This document shows, one piece after another, positions 4,246 through 24,357 of a DNA stretch of 64,000 nt. The stretch comes from Candidatus Melainabacteria bacterium 17Bon1m (lineage in GTDB: Bacteria > Cyanobacteriota > Vampirovibrionia > Obscuribacterales > Obscuribacteraceae). The notes under the pieces are model-generated. The model was given only the letters and a program-made list of their open reading frames with translations, was not told the origin of the DNA and searched no databases. Position numbers and translations under genes: made by a program. Each line of letters begins with the position of its first letter. Position 1 is the first letter of the stretch. The DNA is taken from positions 672,001 to 736,000 of the forward strand of contig JAVLKG010000004.1 of the NCBI GenBank assembly GCA_032128875.1. The letters run 5' to 3'.

Positions 4246-5460
4246 ATGTCATCATCAGGTCAAACTGACAGCGTTTCACACCCTTTTGAAATTTCCAAAC
4301 AAATACTTGCAGATGCCGGTGCCCTCAAGCGTTTCGTTGACGCAAATCTTCTGGCCTTTGTCCGATGTGATGTAAGCGGCCGATATTGGGAAGTGAATCA
4401 AGCGATGGTAGATTTGCTTGGTTACTCAAAGGAAGAACTTGAGTCTGGTGCGGTTAAGTGGAACGACATCACGCCGCAAGAACACTCATTTGTCGACCTG
4501 GGCGCTGTCGCAGAGCTGGCGAAGAATGGTAAAGCCGGTCCATTCCAGAAGGAATTGCTGCACAAGGATGGCAGCAAAGTTCCTGTGGTAGTCGGCGTCG
4601 TCACACTGCCTGAATCAACGGACCAGGTGTTGGCTTATCTAATCGGACTTCAACCAAAGACACTGTACGAGTACCGTCAACTTTTACAAGAAGCGCATTT
4701 CCAGCTGCTTGCCGAAAATATTCCACAGCTCGTTAATGTCTGCGATCCGGAAGGTCGCATCATCTATAGCAACAAACGTTTTGTAGATTACACAGGCTTG
4801 AAGAATAACGAAGAAGAGCCACTGATTTGGAACTCCTGTGTGCATCCCGCGGACGTTCAACTCATGAAAGACCTTGGTGAAAAGTGCAGGAATGATCGAT
4901 CGATTTTTGAATGCGAAGCACGGCTGAGAGCTAAAGACGGCTCATACCGTTGGCATCTAATTCTCTCTGTACCGATTTTCAACCCCGACGGCGCAATTCG
5001 CGAGTGGTTCGGCACCTCCACTGACATCGACGACAAAAAGCGCCAACAAGACGAAATTAGGGAAAGTGAACTGCGCTTTCGCATGCTGGCGGATGCAATT
5101 CCTCAGATTGTCTGGTCTGCCGATGCGAGCGGCAATTTCACTTTCTTCAATCACCGATGGACCGAATTCACCGGTCTTTCAGTTGAGCAAAGCTTGAATG
5201 ATGCATGGACCTTGCTTATTCATCCCGACGATCTGCCTATTTACCTGTCTGAATGGAATAAGGCTCTGTCGTCCGGCGACAGTTATGAAGTGGAGTTTCG
5301 TCTGAAACGGGCAATTGGCGTCGGTAAAGTCTCTGGCAACCCCTATCGGTGGCACTTGGGGCGCGCCGTGGCGCTGAGATCAAGAACAGGCTCGATTGTT
5401 GAGTGGTTCGGAACCTGGACGGAGATAGAACCGCAAAAGCGCCGCAGCGCTGGAAAGTGA
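4246..5460 (+). CDS. Stand-alone PAS/PAC sensor protein (three PAS domains, no output domain)
   Basis: VNQAMVDLLGYSKEEL...KDGSKVPV; FQLLAENIPQLV...VHPAD...DGSYRWHL...WFGTSTDID; FRMLADAIPQIVW...IHPDD...YRWHLGRA...WFGTWTEIE. The stop follows immediately. GGAG SD-like sequence upstream. Confidence 0.9.
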   Translation: MSSSGQTDSVSHPFEISKQILADAGALKRFVDANLLAFVRCDVSGRYWEVNQAMVDLLGYSKEELESGAVKWNDITPQEHSFVDLGAVAELAKNGKAGPFQKELLHKDGSKVPVVVGVVTLPESTDQVLAYLIGLQPKTLYEYRQLLQEAHFQLLAENIPQLVNVCDPEGRIIYSNKRFVDYTGLKNNEEEPLIWNSCVHPADVQLMKDLGEKCRNDRSIFECEARLRAKDGSYRWHLILSVPIFNPDGAIREWFGTSTDIDDKKRQQDEIRESELRFRMLADAIPQIVWSADASGNFTFFNHRWTEFTGLSVEQSLNDAWTLLIHPDDLPIYLSEWNKALSSGDSYEVEFRLKRAIGVGKVSGNPYRWHLGRAVALRSRTGSIVEWFGTWTEIEPQKRRSAGK

Positions 5461-5740: not shown

Positions 5741-8700
5741 ATGTCGTCTATCAGCAAAGAACTTGCTGAGTTGCTCGTGGATAACGGCTTGCTTTCTGAC
5801 GCAGATTTGGAGCAAGTCGAACAAGAGAAGGAAAAAACCGGCGAACCACTCCGAATTATTCTCGAGCGCCTGAACTTGGCGACGGAGAAACAACTCAAGA
5901 ATACGCTCGAACTGCAGTACGGCGTAAATTACTTGGCTTTGCACACAATCAGTCCGGAGCTTCCGGTTGTCGACCTCTTGCCCGCCGATGTCATAAGCGA
6001 GCATGGTGTTGTACCGATTCATATCGACGGCAATCGTCTGACTGTTGCCATGGTTAATCCCGATAATTCGGCAGCCATGAAGGCGATCAAAGCCAACGTT
6101 AGTATGGATATCAAACCGCTGGTTTGCTTTGAAGACGATTTCAAGATTTTCCTCGATCAAATCGAGAAAATGCGTCACATGCCGGACAGACCGGTCGCGC
6201 CGGTGGACGACAGTGAATTTGGTGTCGAGACAGCATCTGACTCTGGTGTTGCCGATGATACCACCGGCGAAGCATTCGAAGAATTGCCTGCAGAAGAATT
6301 CGCCACTGAAGAAGCACCAGCAGAGCAAACGCAAGAAGCTGATGAGGCGCCCACGGTAATCCATGAAGCTGCAGACGCGGTTGATTTCCAAAAGGCAGAA
6401 GAAGAGTTCGCTGCTACTGAATACTCAAATGATGAAGTAACCGCCGACGAAGTCACCAGTGATACTGTTACGGCGGCGCCATCATTGACGTCCGGAACCT
6501 ATTCAGCTCAATACGACACTGGATCACTCGATGCAATCGCTACGCCTTCCGTTCCGACCGAGGAGCTGAATAGTGCTCCTTCTGATAGTTTTGACCGCAG
6601 TCTATTAGATTCAATCCCCAGTCCGAGTTTCGACGCCAGCGCGTTGGATTCAATTCCGACCCCAAAAGCCGAAGCAAGCGAACCACCAGAAAAGCCCACG
6701 CAGTCCGGTGGCATGTCCGCCTTCCTGAAGGGAGGCAATGCGCCGAAAAAGGCGGCAAGTGAACCCACTCAAGAAAGATCGGGTGGTCTTTCAGCCCTTC
6801 GTGGCATGATGGGCGGCAAAAAAGGTGGAAAGAAGAACGAACCGGCTCCGCGCCAGGCCGCACCTCCACCCCCTCCGCCTCCGCCGCCACCGCCCCCGCC
6901 CCCAGCGGCTTCGGACAGTGACGACACTGCTGGTGGTGCGGAAGAGCCGCAAGGCAAATCCGGACTTCTGAGCAGCAAATTAGGTAGTGCGGCACACCAT
7001 CTTTCCGCCGCAAAAAAATTCCTCAAGGAAAAGCGCACGGATTCTCAGCCGATTGCAACTCCGGAGCAAAAAGAAGAAGAAGCTGTTCCTGAGTGGATGA
7101 ATCAAATCGACGAAAACACACCTATAGGTGTGGACGCCGCTGCCGAGCCAACCAGCGAACGGCAAGAAGATGCTGCAGAGCAAGTGCGGTCGCTTTCTGC
7201 TGAAGAACAAGCCGTCAACGACTATTATGCAGAATTTGGATTTGATCCAACGGCAGAAGAATCGCAGGCTGAGGTGGCAAGTGATGAAGCGCCTGAAGCC
7301 ACAAGTGAGACAAGTGCCGAGGTTGAAGCAAGTGAGAATATAGAATCCTCAGAAGTACCTGCGACAGCACCAGACTACGAGATCCCGCCGATGGATCCTG
7401 GCGCTGCAAACTTCATGTCTTGGTCGTCAGAACAAGCTGAATCCGAAGAGCAAGCAGTCAACGATGCATTGGCAGAAGCTTCCGAAGCCTTGGCAGCATC
7501 GACCGCCGCCGTCGAAGAAGCACTTGCTGATGCAGAAGAAGCATGGGAAGAAGCATCTGCCGCTGCAGATGAAGCAGTTGCGGCGGGGGACATCTCCTCC
7601 GATGAATTGCCCGCATTCGTCCAGAATACTGCAGAGCAAGAACAGCCTGCCGAGGAAGCATCGGTGGAAGCTGAAACACCCTCAGACGATTCGCCTCAAG
7701 AAATTGCACAAGAAAAAGCCGCAGTAGAAGAAATCTCTGCTGAAGAATTTGCACTTGAAGAATCAGCACCGGAAGTTCAGGAAGCGCTTTCTCAAGAAGA
7801 ACCATCGGTAGAAGAAATCGCAGCATCCGAAGAATCTGTTCCAACAGCAGCAGAATTAGAAGCAGAAGCAGCTCCAGAAGACACTGCGGCGCTGCTTGAT
7901 GAAATGTCTGCGCTGGCCGATACATTGGCAGATACCGACATACCAGAAGCTCCAGCTCACGAAGAAGTAGCTTCAGAATTAGCTGCTGCGCCTGTCGCTG
8001 AAACGTCCGAGATGCCAGATGACTCCGAGTTTGCGGAAAGCGCAGATTGGGGCGATGCTGCGGCTGAAGAAAGCATTGCCGCCGTTGCGGAAACACCAGA
8101 AGCACCTGTTGCTGAAGCAACCGACGAGCAACCTCTTGTTACGCCTGCCGCTTCGGAAGCGCAACCCGTCGCTGCGGTTGATGATGAATTCAATCTGGAC
8201 GACAGCGAATTCCTGTCCGGTGTTGAAGAGCTCCAAGCAATGGCAGAGCTGTCATTCAACGATCAGACAGGGGAAAAATCAGCAGAAGCCGATGAGTTTG
8301 ACGGAATAACTGACTGGGGAGAGGAAGCACCCGCCGTCGAAAACCTGATGTCCAGTCTCTCTTCTGCAGCAGGTGAGGATAAACCCGCGGAAGAGGCAAG
8401 AGATGCTGGCGAAGCCCCTCCATTTTTACAAGAAGAACTCTTGGTAGAGATGGATGTTATTACAGAAGGACAAATTCCTTCTATAAGAAGAGAACTTTTA
8501 ACGACCGGTCAGAGCTTGAGTGTTGTCTTGGAACGCATGGGCATTGCCGGCGAAATGGAATTGTCCGATGCTTTCGATATGCAATTCGGTGCCGGATATA
8601 TCTCGCTTGCATCGATGTCTATCGACGCTGAAGTATTGAATTTGCTACCCGCAAAGGTTGTTGAACAGAGAAGAGTTCTTCCTGTCGGTAAATCGGGCAA

Positions 8701-11212
8701 TCGCGTGACTGTTGTTATGGTCAACCCCGACGATCTTGCAGCCATGAACGACATCAAGTTCAGGCTAAAAGGCATGGAAATCAAGAAAGCCGTTTGTCTT
8801 GAGGACGACTTTGAGCATTTCTTGCGTACACACCTAGTCCAGTCAAACGGTGAACCGCATTTCGAAACTGCTGCGCCAACACTTCCAGCTGAAACTGTCC
8901 CAGTGAATGGGGCAGCACCGGCCGAGTCGATTGCGGAAGCACCACCTGCAGTGCAAGAGAATATTGAACTCACCCCGGTGGTTGAGGAAACTGCCGAACC
9001 TTCATTTGATGCAGTTCAACAATCGGAAGTTGAACCAGTCACCGCACCAGTCGCCACGACACCTGAAGCAACAGCTGCTGAGGTTCAAGCTGAACCAACT
9101 CCAGCTCCGGCACAGCCTGCTGCTGCTGCTGCTGCTGCTCCTGTTCCTGTTCCTGTTCCAGCACCAGAACCTGCCTCGCCTGCACCGGCACCGGCTCCGG
9201 CTCCAGCTCCAGAACCTCCCTCGCCTGCACCAGCTCCGGCTCCGTCTCCAGCACAAGCTCCTGCTGTTCCTTTTACTCAAGCCCCAGTTCCGACAGCAGC
9301 ACCTCCTACTCCTACTGTCGCGCCTGCGGCTGCGCAAGCCGCACCAACGCCAGCTCTCGCTGTGCCACCATCTCCCGCACCGGTCATTAATCCAGCCGCA
9401 ATTCCTTCTGTTGCGCCCGCGGTCACTACGACGCCCGCAGCACCAGTTGCACCGGCAGCGCCAAGTGCACCAGCTTCAACGTCTGCGCCGGTTCCGCCAG
9501 CGGTCCCACCGGTTCCAGGGATCGCCGCGTTGGCAAAACCACCGCTACCACAGACAGCTGGTGTACCACCTGTAATCAAACCAGCATCAGTCCCCGGAGC
9601 AACTCCTGTTCCGGCGAGGCCATTGCTGCAACCTACACTCCATGAGATCCCCGCGCACAAACCAGTCGCACCTACTCCGAGTACTCCGGCTCCCGCAGCC
9701 CCGACGGCGCAGACACCCTCTGCACCTCCGGCTTTGCCACCAGGTGTCGTTCCGCCAAAACCAATTTCTCCGCAACAAATTCCAAATCTAGCAAACCAAC
9801 CGCGCGTGAATTTACAGGCTCCCGCGCCAGGAGCAATAGCACCAACACCTCCAGCTCCTGCACCTGCGACTTCGACGCCAGCTCCTCAAGTTCAGCCGGG
9901 TCAAGTTCCAGGACAAGCACCACGAGTTCAACCGCCTGGTTTAGTTGCACCGCCCCCACCACAACCACCTGCACCTCCGGCACCTCCGGCACCGCCCGCA
10001 CCGGCACCATCAACTCCAACCATTCCGCCACAGGTTGCCCCGCCGCAGCCAGCTGTAATGCAGCCACTACCAAAAGTTCCACCACAACCGACTCCACCTG
10101 CAACTTCTCCAATGGCACCAACTCCGGCAGCACCTGCTCAGGTAGCTCCAACGCCGACGGCACCTGCACCAGCTCCGACTGTACCGGCTCCAGCATCTCC
10201 GGCTGCAGTCCCGACTCCTGCTCCATCCCCTACCGCACCTGCTCCAGCACCGGTGACAGCAGCTCCGGCACCACAGCTACAGGCAGCACCAGCTCCGCCT
10301 GCGCCGCCAGCTCCAACTCCTGCGTCACCGCAACCGGCTGTATTAGCGCCATTGCCTCAAGTTCCTGTTCAACCAGCACCACCGACAACCACCGCAACTC
10401 CAGTTGTTGCAGCACCTGCAATTCCGCCGCAAGCAGTTCCGCAAGCACCGGTACAACCTGCAGCAAGTGCGTCCGGTGCAAACCCTGCCGTTCCTCCACC
10501 ATCGGCGCCAGGAGCTCCAGGTGCGCCGATGCCTATGCCACGCATAAATCCCAATCAGATACCAGGTGTACGTGCTCAGCAACAGTCCTCTGGCTCAATC
10601 CCAGTTTTACAGCCGCCTCAACCTCCAGCTCCAGCAATTTCAGCGACACCAACAGCTCCAACACCTTCAGCACCTCCTGTAGCGCCTGCACCACAGGCAG
10701 TGCAGCCTGCTGTCACATTACCGCAGCCGTCCGCACCAGCTGCAATACCACCTGCTACTCCAGCGGCTCCTGTTACTCCAGCAGTTCCAGCTGCTCCAAC
10801 ACCTACAGCAGCTCCAGCCGCTCCAGCCGCACCTGCTGCGCCACCAACACCTCCCGGACCACCACCGCTGGATCCAAATCTGCTCTCGCTAGCCAGAGAC
10901 ATAATCAACAAAGCCGCAGACAATGGCTTTTCCGATGTGCACATCGAGCCTCAAGCTGCTGAACTCGAATTGCGCTATTGGTATGACGGAGCGTTAATCG
11001 AATCGACAAAGCTAGAAAAGCATATTCACGGCGAGCTGCTTCGTTGCTACAAATCCATCGCCGGTCTGTCTACCGAAGAAACAAAAAAACCGCAAGACAA
11101 ACGGTTGAAGTGGACTGATACTGGTGCAGAACTCGACATTCGTATCACAACAATTCCGTCGGAACACGGCGAAATGGTCGCCGTGTCAATAAAATTCGAC
11201 GACGAAGAATAA
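5741..11212 (+). CDS. Giant PilB/GspE-like protein: two MshEN/T2SSE_N modules, acidic and Pro/Ala-rich linkers, C-terminal PilB N2-like domain, no ATPase domain
   Basis: Modules at about 5741-6170 and 8420-8830 (LLP..V.....V.P....GNR.TV.MVNP...VC.EDDF). The C-terminus SDVHIEP...RYWYDG...IAGL...PQDKR...DIRITTIPSEHGEMV matches the PilB/GspE second N-terminal domain. No Walker A/B motif before the stop. Confidence 0.8.
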   Translation: MSSISKELAELLVDNGLLSDADLEQVEQEKEKTGEPLRIILERLNLATEKQLKNTLELQYGVNYLALHTISPELPVVDLLPADVISEHGVVPIHIDGNRLTVAMVNPDNSAAMKAIKANVSMDIKPLVCFEDDFKIFLDQIEKMRHMPDRPVAPVDDSEFGVETASDSGVADDTTGEAFEELPAEEFATEEAPAEQTQEADEAPTVIHEAADAVDFQKAEEEFAATEYSNDEVTADEVTSDTVTAAPSLTSGTYSAQYDTGSLDAIATPSVPTEELNSAPSDSFDRSLLDSIPSPSFDASALDSIPTPKAEASEPPEKPTQSGGMSAFLKGGNAPKKAASEPTQERSGGLSALRGMMGGKKGGKKNEPAPRQAAPPPPPPPPPPPPPPAASDSDDTAGGAEEPQGKSGLLSSKLGSAAHHLSAAKKFLKEKRTDSQPIATPEQKEEEAVPEWMNQIDENTPIGVDAAAEPTSERQEDAAEQVRSLSAEEQAVNDYYAEFGFDPTAEESQAEVASDEAPEATSETSAEVEASENIESSEVPATAPDYEIPPMDPGAANFMSWSSEQAESEEQAVNDALAEASEALAASTAAVEEALADAEEAWEEASAAADEAVAAGDISSDELPAFVQNTAEQEQPAEEASVEAETPSDDSPQEIAQEKAAVEEISAEEFALEESAPEVQEALSQEEPSVEEIAASEESVPTAAELEAEAAPEDTAALLDEMSALADTLADTDIPEAPAHEEVASELAAAPVAETSEMPDDSEFAESADWGDAAAEESIAAVAETPEAPVAEATDEQPLVTPAASEAQPVAAVDDEFNLDDSEFLSGVEELQAMAELSFNDQTGEKSAEADEFDGITDWGEEAPAVENLMSSLSSAAGEDKPAEEARDAGEAPPFLQEELLVEMDVITEGQIPSIRRELLTTGQSLSVVLERMGIAGEMELSDAFDMQFGAGYISLASMSIDAEVLNLLPAKVVEQRRVLPVGKSGNRVTVVMVNPDDLAAMNDIKFRLKGMEIKKAVCLEDDFEHFLRTHLVQSNGEPHFETAAPTLPAETVPVNGAAPAESIAEAPPAVQENIELTPVVEETAEPSFDAVQQSEVEPVTAPVATTPEATAAEVQAEPTPAPAQPAAAAAAAPVPVPVPAPEPASPAPAPAPAPAPEPPSPAPAPAPSPAQAPAVPFTQAPVPTAAPPTPTVAPAAAQAAPTPALAVPPSPAPVINPAAIPSVAPAVTTTPAAPVAPAAPSAPASTSAPVPPAVPPVPGIAALAKPPLPQTAGVPPVIKPASVPGATPVPARPLLQPTLHEIPAHKPVAPTPSTPAPAAPTAQTPSAPPALPPGVVPPKPISPQQIPNLANQPRVNLQAPAPGAIAPTPPAPAPATSTPAPQVQPGQVPGQAPRVQPPGLVAPPPPQPPAPPAPPAPPAPAPSTPTIPPQVAPPQPAVMQPLPKVPPQPTPPATSPMAPTPAAPAQVAPTPTAPAPAPTVPAPASPAAVPTPAPSPTAPAPAPVTAAPAPQLQAAPAPPAPPAPTPASPQPAVLAPLPQVPVQPAPPTTTATPVVAAPAIPPQAVPQAPVQPAASASGANPAVPPPSAPGAPGAPMPMPRINPNQIPGVRAQQQSSGSIPVLQPPQPPAPAISATPTAPTPSAPPVAPAPQAVQPAVTLPQPSAPAAIPPATPAAPVTPAVPAAPTPTAAPAAPAAPAAPPTPPGPPPLDPNLLSLARDIINKAADNGFSDVHIEPQAAELELRYWYDGALIESTKLEKHIHGELLRCYKSIAGLSTEETKKPQDKRLKWTDTGAELDIRITTIPSEHGEMVAVSIKFDDEE
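9110..10870 (+). repeat. In-frame low-complexity Pro/Ala/Thr/Gln coding repeats within 5741..11212
   Basis: (GCT)n poly-Ala followed by (CCTGTT)3 near 9119-9157; tandem near-duplicate PEPASPAPAPAPAP/PEPPSPAPAPAPSP; recurring PQPAV..PLP.VP.QP.PP. Confidence 0.75.
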
Positions 11213-11261
11213 GACGAATCGAACGTGCGAAATGAAAATTTGAACGAGCGAGGCTAAGGTC

Positions 11262-12224
11262 TTAAAGCAAACTCGGTGCGATCATCTGCAATTCGCGTTT
11301 CATTTCGAGAATGTTTTGAAATCTTCTTTCTGGATCTTTTTCCAAAGCGGTCATTACACAATTGTTCAAAACTGCCGGAAAGTCCTTTTGCGTGCAGACT
11401 TGATGCAAAGGTTTGGGCTTTTCTTGTATATGCTTCATGCCGAGTTGTTTTGCATCTGTCGCAGAAAATGGAGCGTGTCCGGTTAGTGCTTTGAATAGGA
11501 CGCATCCAAGTGAATAAATGTCGGATCGTGCATCGACTCGTTTTCCTTGCAAAAGCTCAGGGCTGGGGAATCCGCACCGACGAAACAATCCCGGAGTATC
11601 ATTTGTGTTGTGAACATGCTCGCCCACACGCACACTTTCGTAGAAATCAATCAGCTTTACGCTCACTTCGTTCTTGCTGGGAAAGTTGACCATTATATGA
11701 TTCGGCTTCACAGCCAAATGAACGTATTCCTGTTTGTGGGCGGCATTTAGAGCATCGCACACACGGCTCATTGCGGTTATGATCTCCGCCATTTCAATTT
11801 CTTCTCGCCGCAAAAGCGCATCTAGCGACGAGCCTTCGCAGTATTCACCGACCTGAAAAGGTGCATTGCCAGGCAATAAACCGACGTCGAAAATATTGGC
11901 TATCGCCTCGTCGTTGACTTGGCTAATGATTTTCGCTTCGTAGTTGAATTTCTCGACAAAATCAGCCAACCCTCTCAAATTGGGAAGCAGAATCTTCATC
12001 ACAACAGTTCGATCGAAAAGCTTGTGATGTGCCTTGTATACTGCACTTTTGCCGCCCTTGATGGGACCGGCAACAAGATCATAGCCATTGCCTACAGTGG
12101 TATTGATCTGTGGCAACGTATCATCAACAACAGCCTGGTCTACTTCAACTAAGAATGCGCCGTCTTTAGGACAGGTCACACCAGTTGTTTGCGTTGATGC
12201 CTGGCAATTTGGACACCACTTCAC
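11262..12224 (-). CDS. Hanks-type Ser/Thr kinase homolog, probable pseudokinase, with an N-terminal Cys-rich knuckle
   Basis: Kinase subdomains are recognisable (VVMKIL, F..EAKIISQV, DARSDIYSLGCVLF..LTG.APF, EKDPERRF). The catalytic loop reads HLAVKPNH and DFG reads DFY. Start taken as GTG 12224 (MKWCPNC) because AGGAGA lies 6 nt upstream; the ORF track starts at 12251. Confidence 0.85.
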   Translation of the reverse strand: MKWCPNCQASTQTTGVTCPKDGAFLVEVDQAVVDDTLPQINTTVGNGYDLVAGPIKGGKSAVYKAHHKLFDRTVVMKILLPNLRGLADFVEKFNYEAKIISQVNDEAIANIFDVGLLPGNAPFQVGEYCEGSSLDALLRREEIEMAEIITAMSRVCDALNAAHKQEYVHLAVKPNHIMVNFPSKNEVSVKLIDFYESVRVGEHVHNTNDTPGLFRRCGFPSPELLQGKRVDARSDIYSLGCVLFKALTGHAPFSATDAKQLGMKHIQEKPKPLHQVCTQKDFPAVLNNCVMTALEKDPERRFQNILEMKRELQMIAPSLL

Positions 12225-12268
12225 TGGATCTCTCCTCTGGGACTTTCGCAATCGTTAAGCCAAGTTGG

Positions 12269-16909: not shown

Positions 16910-19900
16910 ATGGATGTTTCGACGGTAAACTCTCCAGAGCCTCGCTGCGAGGCACTTGATTGGGCACACCCTCTGGTATCAGAGTGGTTTTGCTCCCGCT
17001 TCGGCACACCGACAGAACCACAGATAGCCGGCTGGCCACATATTCTTGCCGGCGAGACAACCCTGATTGCAGCTCCAACAGGTTCGGGAAAAACACTTGC
17101 AGCATTTCTCGTCTGCATAGACAAACTTGTTCGAAAAGCGCTTTCGGGCAATCTTTCAAATAGCACCGAAGTAGTCTACATCTCTCCACTCAAAGCGTTG
17201 AGCAATGACGTGGAGAAAAACCTCCAGAAGCCGCTAAAAGAAATTTTTGATCTGGCAATGGAGAAAAATCTCCTCATGCCGGAAATCAGAACCATGGTGA
17301 GGACGGGAGACACACTCGCGATTGAACGCCGCACAATGTTGAAGCGTCCACCGCACATTCTGGTTACGACACCAGAATCGCTGTACATCATGGTAACGGC
17401 GGAAAAAAGCAGGGCGATTCTACGCGACGTTGAGACAGTTATCGTCGACGAAATTCACGCGCTCGCTGATGACAAACGTGGCGTGCACATGTCGCTTTCG
17501 CTTGAGCGTCTTGAAGCACTGACCTGGAAAAGCCCGAACCGAATTGGACTTTCTGCAACACAAAAGCCAATAGAAATAACTGCTCAATTTCTCTCCGGCA
17601 ACGGTCGGCCGATGCCGCACATAGTAAATGTCGGTCACAAACGCCAGCTCGACATCGCCGTAGAAACTCCCGATTCGCCATTAGGCGCAGTTTGCTCCAA
17701 CGAACTTTGGGACGAAATCTATCAGAAGCTTTTTGGGCTGATCAAAACGCACACATCAACTCTTATTTTTGCCAACACGAGAAAGTTAGCGGAGCGTATT
17801 GCCCACGACTTAGGTGAGATGCTTGCGGAGGACGTCGGCGAAGAAGAAGCCAACAGTCTCATTGTTGCGCACCACGGCAGCCTATCACGCGAACTTCGAC
17901 TGGAAGCAGAAAGACGGCTCAAAGCCGGCGAGCTTAAAGCCCTGGTTGCGACCGCTTCACTTGAATTAGGGATAGATGTCGGTGCAATTGATCTGGTTTG
18001 CCAAATAGGTTCGCCTCGCAATATTGCTGTGGCACTACAACGCATTGGACGCGCCGGTCACTGGCGGGGTGCAATTCCTAAAGGCAGACTGTTTGCTACA
18101 ACCAGGGACGATTTGCTAGAGTGCGCTTCTCTCATCAAATCAATCAATGAGGGTGATCTCGACCGGCTGATCATTCCGAAAAATTCCATTGATGTTCTGT
18201 GCCAGCAATTAATCGCTGCCTGCTCGACACAAGATTGGAAAGAAGACGAGCTGTTCGAATTGGTAAAGCGTGCTTATCCATTTCGCGATTTAGAAAGAAG
18301 CGAATTTGACGATGTTGTGGAAATGCTTTCCACTGGGCTTTCAGACGTACGAGCTAGGTATGGTGCCTTTTTACAACGCGACCGGGTCAACGGAATAATA
18401 AAAGCGAGACGCGGCAGTCTACTCGCTTCGGTCACAAATGCAGGTGCCATTCCAGAGACGGGCATGTTTACTGTGCTGACTGAACCGGAAGGTTTAATGG
18501 TCGGTACTCTAGATGAAGACTTCGCTGTCGAAAGCTCTGCCGGCGATGTTATGTTGCTTGGCACGACATCTTGGATGATCACCAAGATTGAAGGTAAAGG
18601 CGGCAAGGTCTGGGTGGTAGATGCGAACGGAGCCCCGCCGACTGTACCTTTCTGGCGCGGAGAAGCACCAGGAAGAACCAAAGAACTCTCCGATCAGTTA
18701 TCTGGACTTCGAGAAGAAATTAGCAGGCGTGCCTTATCAACGAGCGAAGATGACGACACACCGCCTAGCTCGAAGAAAGCGGAAAAATGGTTGGTGGACG
18801 CTTGCGGCTTGAGCCGTGATGCTGCCTCGCAAGCGGTTTCCTATGTGCTTGAAGGACAAGCATTATTAGGAGGTGTTCCATCGAAAAAGCTAATTATTGC
18901 CGAGCGCTTCTTTGATGAGGCTGGCGGCATGCAATTGGTAATTCATGCACCTTTTGGCAGTCGCATCAACAAAGCGTGGGGAATGGCTCTCACAAAAAAA
19001 TTCTGTCGCAACTTCGACTTGGAGCTTCAAGCTCAAGCTACCGAAAACGGCATTAACATAGCACTTTCAGAAAGGCACAGTTTCCCGCTTGAAGATGTTT
19101 TCCAATTTCTGAGTCTGGAGACAGTAGTAGGCGTATTAGAACAAGCAATTCTTCAGTCGCCATTATTCGCCACGCGTTTTCGCTGGGCGGCGAACAGATC
19201 GCTCGCACTTCTTCGCTTCCAGGGCGGCAAGAAAGTCCCTCCGCAAATTCAACGAATGCGCGCAGAAGATCTGCTCACAGCAGTCTTTCCGAAAGCTGCT
19301 GCGTGTCAGGACAATATTTCCGGCGAAATTGAAATTCCCAATCACCCTCTAATCAAGGAAACCATGAAAGATGCCTTGACCGAAGCGCTTGATTTAGAAG
19401 GGTTTATCGAGCTCTTAACAAGTTTGAAAAACGGAGAGATCGCCACACATGCAATTGACACGCCGGCGCCATCCGTTTTTTCTCACGAAATTTTGAATGC
19501 CAATCCATATGCATATCTTGACGATGCCCCTCTGGAAGAAAGGCGTGCACGCGCAGTCGAATTGAGGCGGGTTTTGCCCGACTCTATTGCATCCACAACT
19601 GGACGCCTAGATGAATATGCGATTTGCCAGGTAAGGATGGAAGCCTGGCCAGACGTAAGAAATCATGACGACTTGCACGATTTCCTTTACACAGTAATTG
19701 GTGCACCACCTCATCTGGCATTGGTTGTTAGAGAGAGTGGCTTGACAGCATGGAGTATTCACTTCCGGGAGTTGATGAAGCAAAGAAGAGCCGGGGTAGC
19801 TACTTTTGCTGGCAATGACTATTGGGTTGCAACCGAGCGCAAAGCAGCCTTTCTCAAAATATTTCCAACGGCAACTTTCGAGGAAGAGCTTCCTGATATT

Positions 19901-21409
19901 CAAGAGAAAGAACTCACCCAAGAAGATGCTATCGACTTCATGGTGAAAGGCTGGATGAATTATCTCGGTCCGGTAACCGCAGCGGCAATCGCCGATTTGC
20001 TTGCTGTGCCGCAATTCGACATCGACTTATCTCTCCTTCGAATAGAATCCCAAGGTTCAATACTGCGTGGAAAGTTTACCGGTTTAGAAGAAGAGTGGTG
20101 CGATCGTCGCTTACTGGCACGCATTCATCGCCTGACTGTTGACGGACTACGCCGTCAAATAAGACCAGTCACCAAAGAAGAATTCATGCTCTTCCTGGCG
20201 AGATGGCAGCATGTCGCACCCGGAACCCAATTGGTCGGCGTTCGTGGACTGCAGCAAGTACTCAGTCAATTACAAGGCTTTGAACTTCCGGCAAATGCTT
20301 GGGAATCCCAAATTTTGTCTAAGCGCGTCAGGAAATATGCTCCTGAAGATTTAGATCAATTATGTATGACTGGTTTTATCGGTTGGGGAAGAATTTCTCC
20401 GCACCCAGCCACGGTAGCAGCTGTAATTCCGCAGCCCAAGCGCTTCTCTTTCAAGCGATATGGCATGCCGATTGCTCGAAATATCAAGCTCAACAGTGAA
20501 GTTACAGAAAAGCAAGGACAGAATCAGGTTGAGTCAAAACCAGTAGAAGCGACAAAGGTTAAAACCGTCGTCATGCTCTCCAGCACAGATCCAAGCATCC
20601 GAGAAGCCGGCGGCAGGCGTGTTATACCCAGCAGCGTTTCACCTATGACTTTCTTCGTTAGACAAGAGTGCGACTGGATTTCTTACTGTAGACGTTCGGC
20701 AGAAGACATCGATCAATATTGTTTGACCAGCAATGCTCGGTTAGTAGTCAAACATCTTAGTGAGCGCGGCGCCTTATTTTTCAACGATCTCACAAGATTT
20801 ACGGGATTGCTTAAGGCAGAAGTTGAAGCTGCATTGTGGGAACTAGTTGCCGCTGGACTTGCCACCGCGGACGGTTTTGACAATTTGCGTGCACTAATAG
20901 ATCCAAAACGCCGAAGTGGACAAGGCAGCGCCAGAGATTTACGACCGAGAAACGCTACTGGACGCTGGTCTGTGCTTGGCGAACTTACTGGTGACGATGA
21001 AAGAGACGCCATCGAGAGCGCTTGCATGACATTGCTGAATCGCTACGGAGTTCTTTTCAAAGACTTACTTACTCGCGAGACAACAGCACCTACATGGCGC
21101 GAAATGCTCACAGTCCTGCGACGAATGGAAGCTCGCGGAGAATTGCGCGGCGGAAGATTTGTAGCAGGTTTTTCCGGCGAGCAATATGCACTTCCGGCAG
21201 CTCTGGAATCATTAAGAGCCAATCGAGATCAATCAACAGATGTGCTGAAATCTATCGAAGTATCGTCAGTTGATCCACTGAATCTGCGAGGCATCATTCT
21301 GCCCGGTGAAAAGGTGCCGGCTATTTCAGGGCGTTTCGTCAACCTTGGCGATGATACAACGCCTTCTTTTGTGCGCGAAGAAGTCGAAACGGAGTACATC
21401 GTTTCGTAG
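16910..21409 (+). CDS. lhr: Lhr-family ATP-dependent SF2 helicase, long form with C-terminal extension
   Basis: APTGSGKT, YISPLKALSND, TTPESL, DEIH, GLSAT, HHGSLS, ATASLELGIDVG, QRIGRAGH; Lhr-typical PFW.GE, IHAPFG.RINKAWG and RGG.FVAGFSGEQYA. Confidence 0.92.
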   Translation: MDVSTVNSPEPRCEALDWAHPLVSEWFCSRFGTPTEPQIAGWPHILAGETTLIAAPTGSGKTLAAFLVCIDKLVRKALSGNLSNSTEVVYISPLKALSNDVEKNLQKPLKEIFDLAMEKNLLMPEIRTMVRTGDTLAIERRTMLKRPPHILVTTPESLYIMVTAEKSRAILRDVETVIVDEIHALADDKRGVHMSLSLERLEALTWKSPNRIGLSATQKPIEITAQFLSGNGRPMPHIVNVGHKRQLDIAVETPDSPLGAVCSNELWDEIYQKLFGLIKTHTSTLIFANTRKLAERIAHDLGEMLAEDVGEEEANSLIVAHHGSLSRELRLEAERRLKAGELKALVATASLELGIDVGAIDLVCQIGSPRNIAVALQRIGRAGHWRGAIPKGRLFATTRDDLLECASLIKSINEGDLDRLIIPKNSIDVLCQQLIAACSTQDWKEDELFELVKRAYPFRDLERSEFDDVVEMLSTGLSDVRARYGAFLQRDRVNGIIKARRGSLLASVTNAGAIPETGMFTVLTEPEGLMVGTLDEDFAVESSAGDVMLLGTTSWMITKIEGKGGKVWVVDANGAPPTVPFWRGEAPGRTKELSDQLSGLREEISRRALSTSEDDDTPPSSKKAEKWLVDACGLSRDAASQAVSYVLEGQALLGGVPSKKLIIAERFFDEAGGMQLVIHAPFGSRINKAWGMALTKKFCRNFDLELQAQATENGINIALSERHSFPLEDVFQFLSLETVVGVLEQAILQSPLFATRFRWAANRSLALLRFQGGKKVPPQIQRMRAEDLLTAVFPKAAACQDNISGEIEIPNHPLIKETMKDALTEALDLEGFIELLTSLKNGEIATHAIDTPAPSVFSHEILNANPYAYLDDAPLEERRARAVELRRVLPDSIASTTGRLDEYAICQVRMEAWPDVRNHDDLHDFLYTVIGAPPHLALVVRESGLTAWSIHFRELMKQRRAGVATFAGNDYWVATERKAAFLKIFPTATFEEELPDIQEKELTQEDAIDFMVKGWMNYLGPVTAAAIADLLAVPQFDIDLSLLRIESQGSILRGKFTGLEEEWCDRRLLARIHRLTVDGLRRQIRPVTKEEFMLFLARWQHVAPGTQLVGVRGLQQVLSQLQGFELPANAWESQILSKRVRKYAPEDLDQLCMTGFIGWGRISPHPATVAAVIPQPKRFSFKRYGMPIARNIKLNSEVTEKQGQNQVESKPVEATKVKTVVMLSSTDPSIREAGGRRVIPSSVSPMTFFVRQECDWISYCRRSAEDIDQYCLTSNARLVVKHLSERGALFFNDLTRFTGLLKAEVEAALWELVAAGLATADGFDNLRALIDPKRRSGQGSARDLRPRNATGRWSVLGELTGDDERDAIESACMTLLNRYGVLFKDLLTRETTAPTWREMLTVLRRMEARGELRGGRFVAGFSGEQYALPAALESLRANRDQSTDVLKSIEVSSVDPLNLRGIILPGEKVPAISGRFVNLGDDTTPSFVREEVETEYIVS

Positions 21410-23865: not shown

Positions 23866-24357
23866 TTAAGGCAAGTCGATAACGATGATGGGATGCGCGC
23901 TTAACTGGTCGATAGCGATTTCACCGACGCTGTAATGCACTACCTCACCGCCATGCTTGTAGGAGACATTCTCTCGATCCTGCTTAAACTCCTCCAGTGT
24001 GCTCTTTGCCGTTTGCGGGTCGAGTTTTTTAAGCAGTGAAACAGCGTAAAGCCGCCCAGCTGGAGAGGCATTGTGCGTAAGCCAGATAACATCGGACTTT
24101 ACGCCAACTCCTGCCTTGGCTGCCTCCTCGAAAGCCTTTCTCAAGTCGCTTTTCGGGGCATTCGCCGGCACTCTGGAGTCTTCAACCAGCTTGGCAGACT
24201 TCAAAGTCTCCAGAAAAGCAGGCAGTTTTACGGCCGACTCTTCTGCAGCGGGTGTTTGCGGAGTTTGGCTGGTTTCTTCGGCACAAACGCCATTACTTAA
24301 TCCAGACAATAGTAGAAAGCTAATAATTAGTGCGTTACTTGCGGGTTTCATGGGCAT
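23866..24357 (-). CDS. Secreted hypothetical protein
   Basis: Signal-like N-terminus ending VCA-EE, followed by a helical domain; no family recognised. Confidence 0.65.
   Translation of the reverse strand: MPMKPASNALIISFLLLSGLSNGVCAEETSQTPQTPAAEESAVKLPAFLETLKSAKLVEDSRVPANAPKSDLRKAFEEAAKAGVGVKSDVIWLTHNASPAGRLYAVSLLKKLDPQTAKSTLEEFKQDRENVSYKHGGEVVHYSVGEIAIDQLSAHPIIVIDLP

Follow-up and report, generated by a model that had tools for sequence, protein, structure and literature searches.

To our knowledge, PilB-type ATPases, including PilB, the extension ATPase of type IVa pili (T4aP), have been treated as indivisible motors, with N1 and N2 regarded as parts of the engine. In Geobacter metallireducens PilB (PDB 5TSG/5TSH), N2 of one chain is described as packing on the C-terminal RecA-like ATPase domain (CTD) of the next chain, with about 1,600 Å2 buried, and two arginine fingers are reported, R271, which points to the Asp-box glutamate, and R286, which points to the nucleotide phosphates (PMC5424180). 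N1 is thought to contact platform proteins (PMC11656802). The present analysis revealed that a bacterial family, the Obscuribacteraceae, keeps N1 and N2 without the engine as selected genes, in two lineages, one located in the pil operon and the other elsewhere. The gene described here belongs to the latter lineage and specifies a protein of 1823 amino acids (aa); it is located in a stretch of 64,000 nucleotides (nt) of Candidatus Melainabacteria bacterium 17Bon1m (contig JAVLKG010000004.1, positions 672,001 to 736,000), which is referred to below as the window. Coordinates without a contig or locus prefix are window positions.

Several described systems share part of the composition of this protein. 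The MshEN domain, to which N1 corresponds, is a widespread domain that binds cyclic di-GMP (c-di-GMP) and is also found fused to non-ATPase domains, namely REC, HD-GYP, CheA, cyclases and kinases; these fusions are presented as c-di-GMP receptors, and an N2 domain without an ATPase is not described among them in the sections considered here (PMC5013675). Thermus thermophilus PilF resembles the present protein in having several GSPII/MshEN modules in a single polypeptide (PMC11731258). In contrast, PilF (chain 6F8L_G, 913 aa, core matches at chain residues 334-888) still has its ATPase core and lacks long disordered spacers, and the c-di-GMP motifs are absent in the present protein. A possible analogy is offered by inhibitors and cofactors that act on the PilB motor in a non-enzymatic manner, such as the phage proteins Tip and Aqs1, PilZ-FimX and Acinetobacter CpiA (PMC11656802; 10.1101/2020.09.28.317149), but these are not homologous to PilB, unlike the present protein. 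The sections of the review on PilB cofactors list PilZ-FimX, c-di-GMP and phage peptides and mention no head-only PilB paralogue (PMC11656802). Full-text literature searches for head-only PilB proteins, with subscription journals and the supplement of PMC5013675 outside their scope, gave only experimental truncations and unrelated uses.

Compared with PilB of G. metallireducens and of the same genome, the protein has homologous N1/MshEN and N2 domains (fold TM 0.81), whereas the RecA-like ATPase domain, the zinc-binding part and the phosphate-binding arginine finger are missing. It further differs in having two N1 modules and about 1400 residues of disordered linker, and in being encoded outside the pil operon. 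We assign a probability of about 0.5 to the reading that it is a non-enzymatic descendant of PilB which acts as a multivalent, N2-centred adaptor or tether with putative partners. The two lineages provide a natural dissection of what N1 and N2 can do alone and suggest a class of adaptors or regulators that descend from a motor. The organisms are uncultured, and the value of these findings lies in testable hypotheses rather than in demonstrated function.

A selected gene for a PilB derivative without the ATPase domain

The gene is a single intact open reading frame (ORF) with an ATG start, as seen in the ORF list and its translation (Table 1). The Pfam family MshEN (PF05157) was matched twice (E 2.4e-34; window 5918-6175 and 8585-8833 in the whole-genome search), while the match to T2SSE (PF00437) was restricted to positions 11-109 of the 370 positions of the profile, corresponding to residues 1717-1815 (window 10889-11188). 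The stop follows 8 residues past this match. The RecA-like CTD, with its Walker A, Walker B, Asp and His boxes, gave no match in the gene or anywhere near it when the genome was searched with a CTD profile. A loose Walker A regular expression, which found the P-loop of the cognate PilB at residue 337, matched the present protein only at residue 400, within a disordered spacer, and in no folded domain. As a convergent kinase gene starts 50 nt past the stop, there is no space for an ATPase domain downstream. The RecA-like ATPase domain is absent from the 1823-aa protein. The NCBIfam models of PilB (TIGR02538) and GspE (TIGR02533) scored 163.5 and 87.3 bits, respectively, which is below their cut-offs of 675.65 and 630.25.

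An earlier note on this DNA had described an 1823-aa ORF with the order N1-spacer-N1-spacer-N2, linkers of about 750 and 680 aa and neither ATPase domain nor Walker motifs, and had proposed a scan with hidden Markov models. The ORF list and the Pfam scan, which gave two MshEN stretches and the N2 part of T2SSE only, bear out this description, and the linkers measure 747 and 655 aa. With regard to annotation, this means that a protein with a 'T2SSE' match may be no ATPase.

Table 1. Features of the gene and its two direct neighbours, in window positions
Feature	Position	Strand	Basis
Whole gene: ATPase-less PilB derivative, 1823 aa	5741..11212	+	ORF list; stop codon 11210-11212
N1a, first PilB-type N1/MshEN module, residues 1-150	5741..6190	+	Pfam MshEN, best stretch residues 60-145
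Spacer 1, acidic Ala/Glu/Ser-rich, mostly disordered, 747 aa	6191..8431	+	Composition, alignment, AlphaFold2
Conserved motif QYDTGSLD..ATP, with LD.IP.P repeats	6509-6547	+	Invariant in 6 orthologues
Conserved motif SG.LSALRGMMGGKKGGKKNEP	6779-6844	+	Invariant in 6 orthologues
Poly-Pro tract, after SG.LSALRGMMGGKKGGKKNEP	6863-6904	+	6-orthologue alignment
Conserved motif LL.SKLGSAAH....AKKF.KEKR	6965-7048	+	Invariant in 6 orthologues
Conserved motif PEWMNQIDE.TP	7085-7123	+	Invariant in 6 orthologues
DPGA..FM.WS motif, then predicted Ala/Glu-rich helix, about 65 residues	7394..7591	+	Alignment, AlphaFold2
N1b, second PilB-type N1/MshEN module, residues 898-1045	8432..8875	+	Second MshEN stretch
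Spacer 2, Pro/Ala/Val/Thr-rich, 655 aa	8876..10840	+	Composition
N2 domain, residues 1701-1823, protein end	10841..11209	+	T2SSE partial match, AlphaFold2, Foldseek
Upstream neighbour: 404-aa PAS-domain protein	4246..5460	+	Pfam PAS_3/PAS; 280-nt gap to gene
Downstream convergent neighbour: Ser/Thr protein kinase	11262..12251	-	Pfam Pkinase; 50 nt past stop

With N2 as the query, an orthologue was found in nine of the 12 other genomes of the genus, with 79-98% identity; the three genomes without one are 79-86% complete. Five further orthologues are full-length (1916, 1760, 1807, 1842 and 1703 aa) and one more is cut by a contig end. All of these copies share the C-terminal end ...SIKF(D/E)(D/E)E, followed by the stop. 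Contigs from public runs of two other studies span 9261-11500 with 0-2 differences and confirm the stop region. Relative to the window, environmental assemblies (runs X8 and X6) carry two deletions of 6 nt, at 6872 in spacer 1 and at 10621 in spacer 2. As each comprises 6 nt, both are in frame, and they represent natural length polymorphism in both spacers. The whole stretch is also present in three runs labelled as RNA-Seq. A word-indexed homologue search with residues 1690-1823 returned three proteins of 1647-1807 aa, the Pro-rich start of the query having probably consumed the candidate words, and this small number carries no weight for the distribution of the protein.

Conservation was assessed in an alignment of the six full-length proteins of the genus. 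Invariant columns amount to 72-82% in N1a, 52-64% in N1b and 80-87% in N2, and to under 30%, with many gaps, in most spacer blocks. Nonsynonymous and synonymous divergence (dN and dS) were calculated by the Nei-Gojobori method. Clean ratios were obtained from one pair only, because dS is saturated for most orthologue pairs; the non-saturated pair comprises G000, the host genome of the gene (7.55 Mb, 35 contigs), and G011 (genomes are designated by G and genera by g, each followed by a number). For this pair, dN and dS are 0 and 0.36 in N1a, 0.012 and 0.30 in N1b, 0.007 and 0.295 in N2, 0.055 and 0.30 in spacer 1, and 0.139 and 0.50 in spacer 2. Strong purifying selection acts on the three folded domains, with dN/dS of 0-0.04 at dS of about 0.3. 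The earlier note had held that the protein is not a broken motor and had proposed a search for the same architecture in relatives and a test for neutral evolution of the folded domains. The shared end point of the orthologues, the selection on the folded domains and the agreement among assemblies all support this view. A continuation of the ATPase domain in orthologues, named there as a possible refutation, was not seen, since the five further full-length copies and the one cut by a contig end stop at the same N2 boundary.

N1a and N1b are 48.6% and 46.9% identical, respectively, to N1 of PilB of the same genome, and N2 is 34% identical to its counterpart. The C-terminal 123 residues were modelled with AlphaFold2 on the basis of 16 aligned relatives (pLDDT 91.1), and Foldseek aligned the model with the N2 domains of EpsE, PilB and PilF (1P9W, 5ZFR, 5IT5) at TM 0.81 and an rmsd of 1.4-1.9 Å. 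A sequence profile of N2 recovers the same structure chains. An ESM Atlas look-up with N2 gave generic 'T2SSE domain' clusters of 113-130 aa with scores of 0.90-0.91, which are leads only. The assignment of the C-terminal domain as N2-like, made earlier from the sequence, agrees with both the partial T2SSE match and the Foldseek result.

The motifs SD.H.EP, YK, PQD, R.(S/T).P and GE are retained in N2. Individual residues were compared among 10 PilBs of the family, three short forms, which are ATPase-less proteins encoded next to pilB, and 20 distinct proteins of what we define here as the orphan clade, which comprises ATPase-less PilB derivatives encoded away from pil genes (Table 2). The numbering of G. 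metallireducens PilB was mapped to the cognate PilB as chain index minus 20, which makes R271 equivalent to R283 and R286 equivalent to R298. In the present protein, the R271 equivalent is still an arginine and the R286 equivalent is a serine, so that the two arginine fingers are not both present. The changes from RxDG to WYDG and from VxRIL to VSIKF, to which the first reading of the sequence had drawn attention, are both real, R229 and R298 being replaced in all orphans. It follows from these counts that the residue in contact with the nucleotide was lost along with the motor, and that the core N2 set has stayed fixed.

Table 2. Residues of the N2 domain in PilBs, short forms and orphans, in the numbering of the cognate PilB
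Residue	PilBs (10)	Short forms (3)	Orphans (20)
R298 (= G. metallireducens R286)	R 10/10	W 3/3	S 19, A 1
R283 (= G. metallireducens R271)	R 10/10	R 2, L 1	R 18/20
R229 (RxDG)	R 10/10	R 3/3	Replaced 20/20, by W/L/F/M/V
R251	R 10/10	R 3/3	Replaced 20/20
R264	R 10/10	R 2, M 1	Replaced 20/20
G269	G 10/10	G 3/3	Replaced 20/20
R263	R 10/10	R 2, Q 1	Replaced 18/20
K253	Invariant 10/10	K 1, R 2	Invariant 20/20
Q267	Invariant 10/10	Kept 3/3	Invariant 20/20
P288	Invariant 10/10	Kept 3/3	Invariant 20/20
E293	Invariant 10/10	E 2, D 1	Invariant 20/20

With regard to the linkers, spacer 1 contains 19% Ala, 17% Glu, 10% Ser, 9% Pro and 8% Asp, carries a net charge of -155 and is rich in indels among orthologues. 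Spacer 2 contains 33% Pro and 25% Ala, with the local GC lifted to 0.60-0.62, and exhibits short in-frame tandem repeats. The AlphaFold2 model of residues 240-620 has a mean pLDDT of 55.6 and no globular domain; helices are predicted at about 472-498 and 503-514, and a long one at about 553-619 (pLDDT 70-85; model residues 314-380). In addition to the short conserved motifs listed in Table 1, an Ala/Glu-rich block of about 49 residues in spacer 1 is invariant in the six orthologues. The putative retained scaffold suggested earlier would be consistent with these short motifs and with the predicted helix, about 65 residues long, in spacer 1. Its other suggestion, that of a ruler, was rejected because the spacer length is hypervariable, spacers of the clade being absent in the N2-only ORFs (130-198 aa) and reaching about 1340 aa in other members.

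ATPase-less relatives in the family and in a global library

The orphan N2 profile was searched against 81 Obscuribacteraceae genomes sampled from 37 genera. Hits above the PilB band (E <= 3.3e-34) came from 38 genomes, which represent 13 genera; the open frames concerned span 147-1933 aa. Two further genomes, G143 and G167, scored within the PilB band and were confirmed by their architecture, which brings the total to 40 of the 81 genomes and at least 15 of the 37 genera. Eleven orphan loci were inspected and scored with our own N1, N2 and CTD profiles: nine encode N1, a spacer of about 230-1340 aa and a C-terminal N2, one encodes N2 only (a 198-aa ORF) and one is cut by a contig end. The CTD profile matched in none of the 11 loci. 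As none of the nine N1-spacer-N2 proteins, all from other genera, carries a second N1, the doubled N1 has been seen solely in the present genus. N1a and N1b stand apart in a careful tree, while a forced grouping of the two was not rejected (p-AU 0.16). Across the orphan clade, only the C-terminal N2 is constant; N1 modules and disordered spacers differ from member to member.

In a maximum-likelihood tree of N2, the long proteins of the genus share a clade (support 100/99) with an N1-spacer-N2 protein of 1285 aa from G017 and an N2-only ORF of 130 aa from G018, whereas the short forms adjacent to pilB form a separate clade (support 96/94). Both ATPase-less clades lie inside an unresolved radiation of the PilBs of the family, relative to PilB of another order, and long-branch warnings apply to the tree. 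The N2-only ORFs (L029:8596-8988 in G018, 130 aa; L052:1891-2487 in G160, 198 aa) each lie downstream of a sigma-70 gene, and short frames resembling them also occur in G169, G093 and G181. From the N2-only ORFs it follows that N2 alone can be a whole protein. Orphans of other genera share a spacer motif, ..K(K/N)HLQSLFGDDDD.., in which a basic-hydrophobic stretch precedes an acidic run, and a second motif, LLE(D/E)VVE.ELG, directly before N2. Both were seen in L048, L050, L055, L053 and L059 (genera g23, g20, g86 and g82) and may be partner-binding peptides.

On a global scale, a library of 1.84 billion representatives was searched with the orphan N2 profile. Of the 15,439 proteins matched at E <= 0.001, only 31 remained at E <= 1e-30. 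Among these 31, 29 stop within 18 residues past N2 (104-1459 aa, the short ones being maybe fragments), and the remaining two retain the complete ATPase and carry either an additional N2 or a second ATPase fused to it. Other arrangements were also found in this library: two N2 domains without an ATPase (P0040, P0037), a biotin-lipoyl-like domain with two N2 domains (P0046), a receiver-fused complete ATPase preceded by an additional N2 (P0033), and two entire T2SSE ATPases within one protein of about 1000 aa (P0036, P0042, P0044).

The short forms belong to the pil locus. In the host genome, contig C1 carries on one strand pilB (687 aa, full T2SSE match 2-370), pilT, pilC and a PilM-type gene; the cognate pilB is located at G000:C1:1128049-1130112, and the T4aP genes together span no more than about 12 kb. 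Directly upstream of pilB-pilT-pilC, an ATPase-less short form of about 748 aa from its likely start is encoded (G000:C1:1130260-1132758, minus strand). It comprises N1 and N2, joined by about 480 aa of Lys/Glu/Ala-rich spacer, which resembles a charged single helix or coiled coil, and it stops at the orphan boundary. G015 and G018 likewise encode short forms, of 781 and 410 aa, respectively, upstream of pilB-pilT-pilC. Like the present protein, the short forms consist of N1, a spacer and N2, end at the same boundary and have lost the R286 equivalent. Unlike it, they form a clade of their own, lie in the pil operon, and have a Lys/Glu/Ala-rich spacer and a single N1. They also keep R229, R251 and G269 as PilB does, unlike the orphans.

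Upstream of pilT-pilC, G058 (L041, C6, 4172-8388) and G079 (L042, C21, 4096-8543) carry two full-length pilB genes in tandem, and G014 and G017 have one pilB at the pilB-pilT-pilC position. The tandem pilB genes at the same position suggest duplication of pilB as the origin of the head-only gene, without proving it. An evolutionary series from tandem full-length pilB to head-only genes and then to N2-only genes can be proposed.

Possible functions of the protein

No pil genes were found beside the orphan gene at any of the 12 loci inspected, which comprise the present gene and 11 others. Genus g82 is informative in this respect. Both of its genomes (G140, 93% complete; G158, 92% complete) carry an intact orphan, of 744 and 528 aa, respectively. 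The two proteins are 84% identical in N1, 90% in N2 and 52% in the alignable spacer, with saturated synonymous sites. Neither genome gave a full-length PilB-type, PilT-type or PilM_2 match, and PilC was not found in them (PilM and PilC were checked in five genomes). The only T2SSF genes present are Tad-style and paired, and lie beside two ATPases of about 540 aa, which makes two Tad-like loci per genome. Genus g82 may have lost type IVa pili yet kept the orphan head protein.

As a PilB-derived adaptor or tether, the protein would have kept the N1 module, twice, and the N2 domain as a head while losing the RecA-like motor. N2, aided by the N1 modules, would dock on at least one partner via surfaces inherited from PilB, and the long linkers, with their conserved short motifs and one long helix, would hold or concentrate other factors. 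ATP would not be hydrolyzed, and c-di-GMP would probably not be sensed. The client would not be restricted to the PilB motor, because g82 keeps the orphan although T4aP genes were not found there. A more far-reaching version, which we put forward only tentatively, is that N2 is a free-standing docking module independent of T4aP, maybe serving Tad-type ATPases or a non-pilus assembly, and that the giant form with two N1 modules is a bivalent, motif-studded disordered scaffold which would organize a membrane-proximal hub or condensate.

Several points weigh against an adaptor of this kind. The sister lineage of short forms in the pil operon speaks for an ability of such heads to cooperate with PilB. 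The neighbours of the orphan genes differ among genera, with an FKBP gene upstream at four loci, a convergent TPR gene at four and a HAD hydrolase gene at three, and no pathway is indicated by conserved neighbours; a sigma-70 gene adjoins the N2-only forms. The absence of T4aP in g82 was deduced from two metagenome-assembled genomes and could be explained by one missed contig in each. A single missed contig could remove all T4aP genes, because these lie so close together in G000, and both assemblies would need such a gap. Pairs other than G000 and G011 have dS above 1.4 or undefined, so that their ratios are bounds only. The contigs with the gene from RNA libraries are 35 kb and 66 kb long and may derive from DNA, their length making DNA carry-over possible. 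Finally, the adaptor mechanism itself is deduced from sequence, and partners and binding are putative.

The protein could instead be a regulator of T4aP directed at PilB, in which N1 would compete for platform partners, or N2 would cap the PilB CTD and disturb the hexamer, and a dominant-negative protein or reservoir would tune extension. We consider this doubtful, but it stays alive because of the PilB ancestry and the sister lineage in the pil operon. The protein derives from PilB of the family and nests in the PilB radiation, its identity to the cognate PilB being 47-49% in N1 and 34% in N2; ATPase-less genes lie directly upstream of pilB-pilT-pilC in G000, G015 and G018; the arginine equivalent to R271 is retained in 18 of the 20 orphans; and the packing of N2 on the CTD and the presumed platform contacts of N1, as described above for PilB, would provide surfaces for such action. 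These points are countered by the 12 loci without pil neighbours, by the orphan of g82, which is under purifying selection where PilB, PilT, PilM and PilC were not found, and by genus g22, where PilB is present and the orphan was hit in none of six genomes. Moreover, of the residues that are invariant in the 10 PilBs, R229, R251, R264, G269 and R298 are replaced in all 20 orphans and R263 in 18. The idea of the earlier note that the protein docks on pilus parts or parts of the type II secretion system, or is dominant-negative, is weakened by the neighbourhoods and by g82. A complex prediction of orphan N2 with residues 186-600 of the cognate PilB scored 0.00 without controls, which speaks neither for nor against binding. 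Another explanation, about as doubtful as the previous one, is that the protein is a head module for a different secretion ATPase of the Tad/CpaF type, or has an unrelated role as a polar hub or condensate scaffold, with PilB ancestry accounting for the fold only. Tad/CpaF-type systems are present in all these genomes; the two proteins of about 540 aa beside paired T2SSF genes are the only PilB-superfamily ATPases of g82, and G000 holds one locus with an ATPase and T2SSF on contig C5, although its 'Tad-like' label is based on gene order and two Pfam families only. The net charge of spacer 1 and the Pro/Ala-rich spacer 2 may also be likened to some hub proteins, and the earlier note had compared these regions with polar landmark or condensate-forming proteins. 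Nevertheless, none of the inspected orphan genes adjoins a Tad locus, and a Pfam search of the protein at E <= 1 found none of the known hub domains (LysM, FimV C-terminal motif, PopZ).

The strong Pfam matches to MshEN, a widespread c-di-GMP binder as noted above, would fit a c-di-GMP receptor whose two modules bind the messenger and relay the signal to partners. We regard this as very improbable. The 24-residue motif (RLGxx(L/V/I)(L/V/I)xxG(L/V/I)(L/V/I)xxxxLxxxLxxQ, PMC5013675), in strict and relaxed form, matched none of 36 modules, comprising N1a, N1b, other orphans, short forms and the canonical PilBs of the family, the regular expression having been used without a positive control. The NCBIfam model of the c-di-GMP motif (NF053729) scored 26.6 bits, below its cut-off of 38, and N1a reads ELA/PLR at the Arg and Gly positions of the motif. 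The degenerate RLG signatures reported earlier are real in N1a, but they are not special, as the canonical PilBs fail the same expression, again without a positive control; the missing motif therefore characterizes the lineage rather than the mimic. The protein probably does not sense c-di-GMP. The last alternative holds that the gene is a pseudogene, that a pilB paralogue was recently truncated by a nonsense mutation, or that low-complexity DNA was misassembled. It is almost certainly wrong and was rejected, being ruled out by the orthologues. Pro/Ala-rich low-complexity DNA with tandem repeats is hard to assemble, and the repeat at 9109-9260 is skipped by contig tools. In opposition to this, the end point is identical in all six full-length copies of the genus and in all other clade members inspected, the kinase gene follows directly, the folded domains are strongly selected, and independent assemblies are concordant, with indels that are in frame.

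Neighbouring genes

The two direct neighbours of the gene (Table 1) recur in the genus. To judge from the ends of the printed ORFs, a PAS-type gene lies upstream in all five orthologues whose contigs extend there, and the convergent kinase gene is present at all six orthologous loci. A small secreted protein with the motif ..ERCHYSV(A/S)DI.. is encoded immediately upstream of the orphan at three loci, in g23, g20 and g82; a homologue with 31-37% identity to it is encoded in the window at 23878-24228 (minus strand), about 12.7 kb away from the gene. Between the two, at 16910-21409 (plus strand), the window encodes an ordinary-looking Lhr-type helicase of 1499 aa (DEAD, Helicase_C, WH_Lhr, DEAD_assoc, WH3/WH4_Lhr), with several genes for TPR proteins and one for a DUF4384-containing hydrolase around it.

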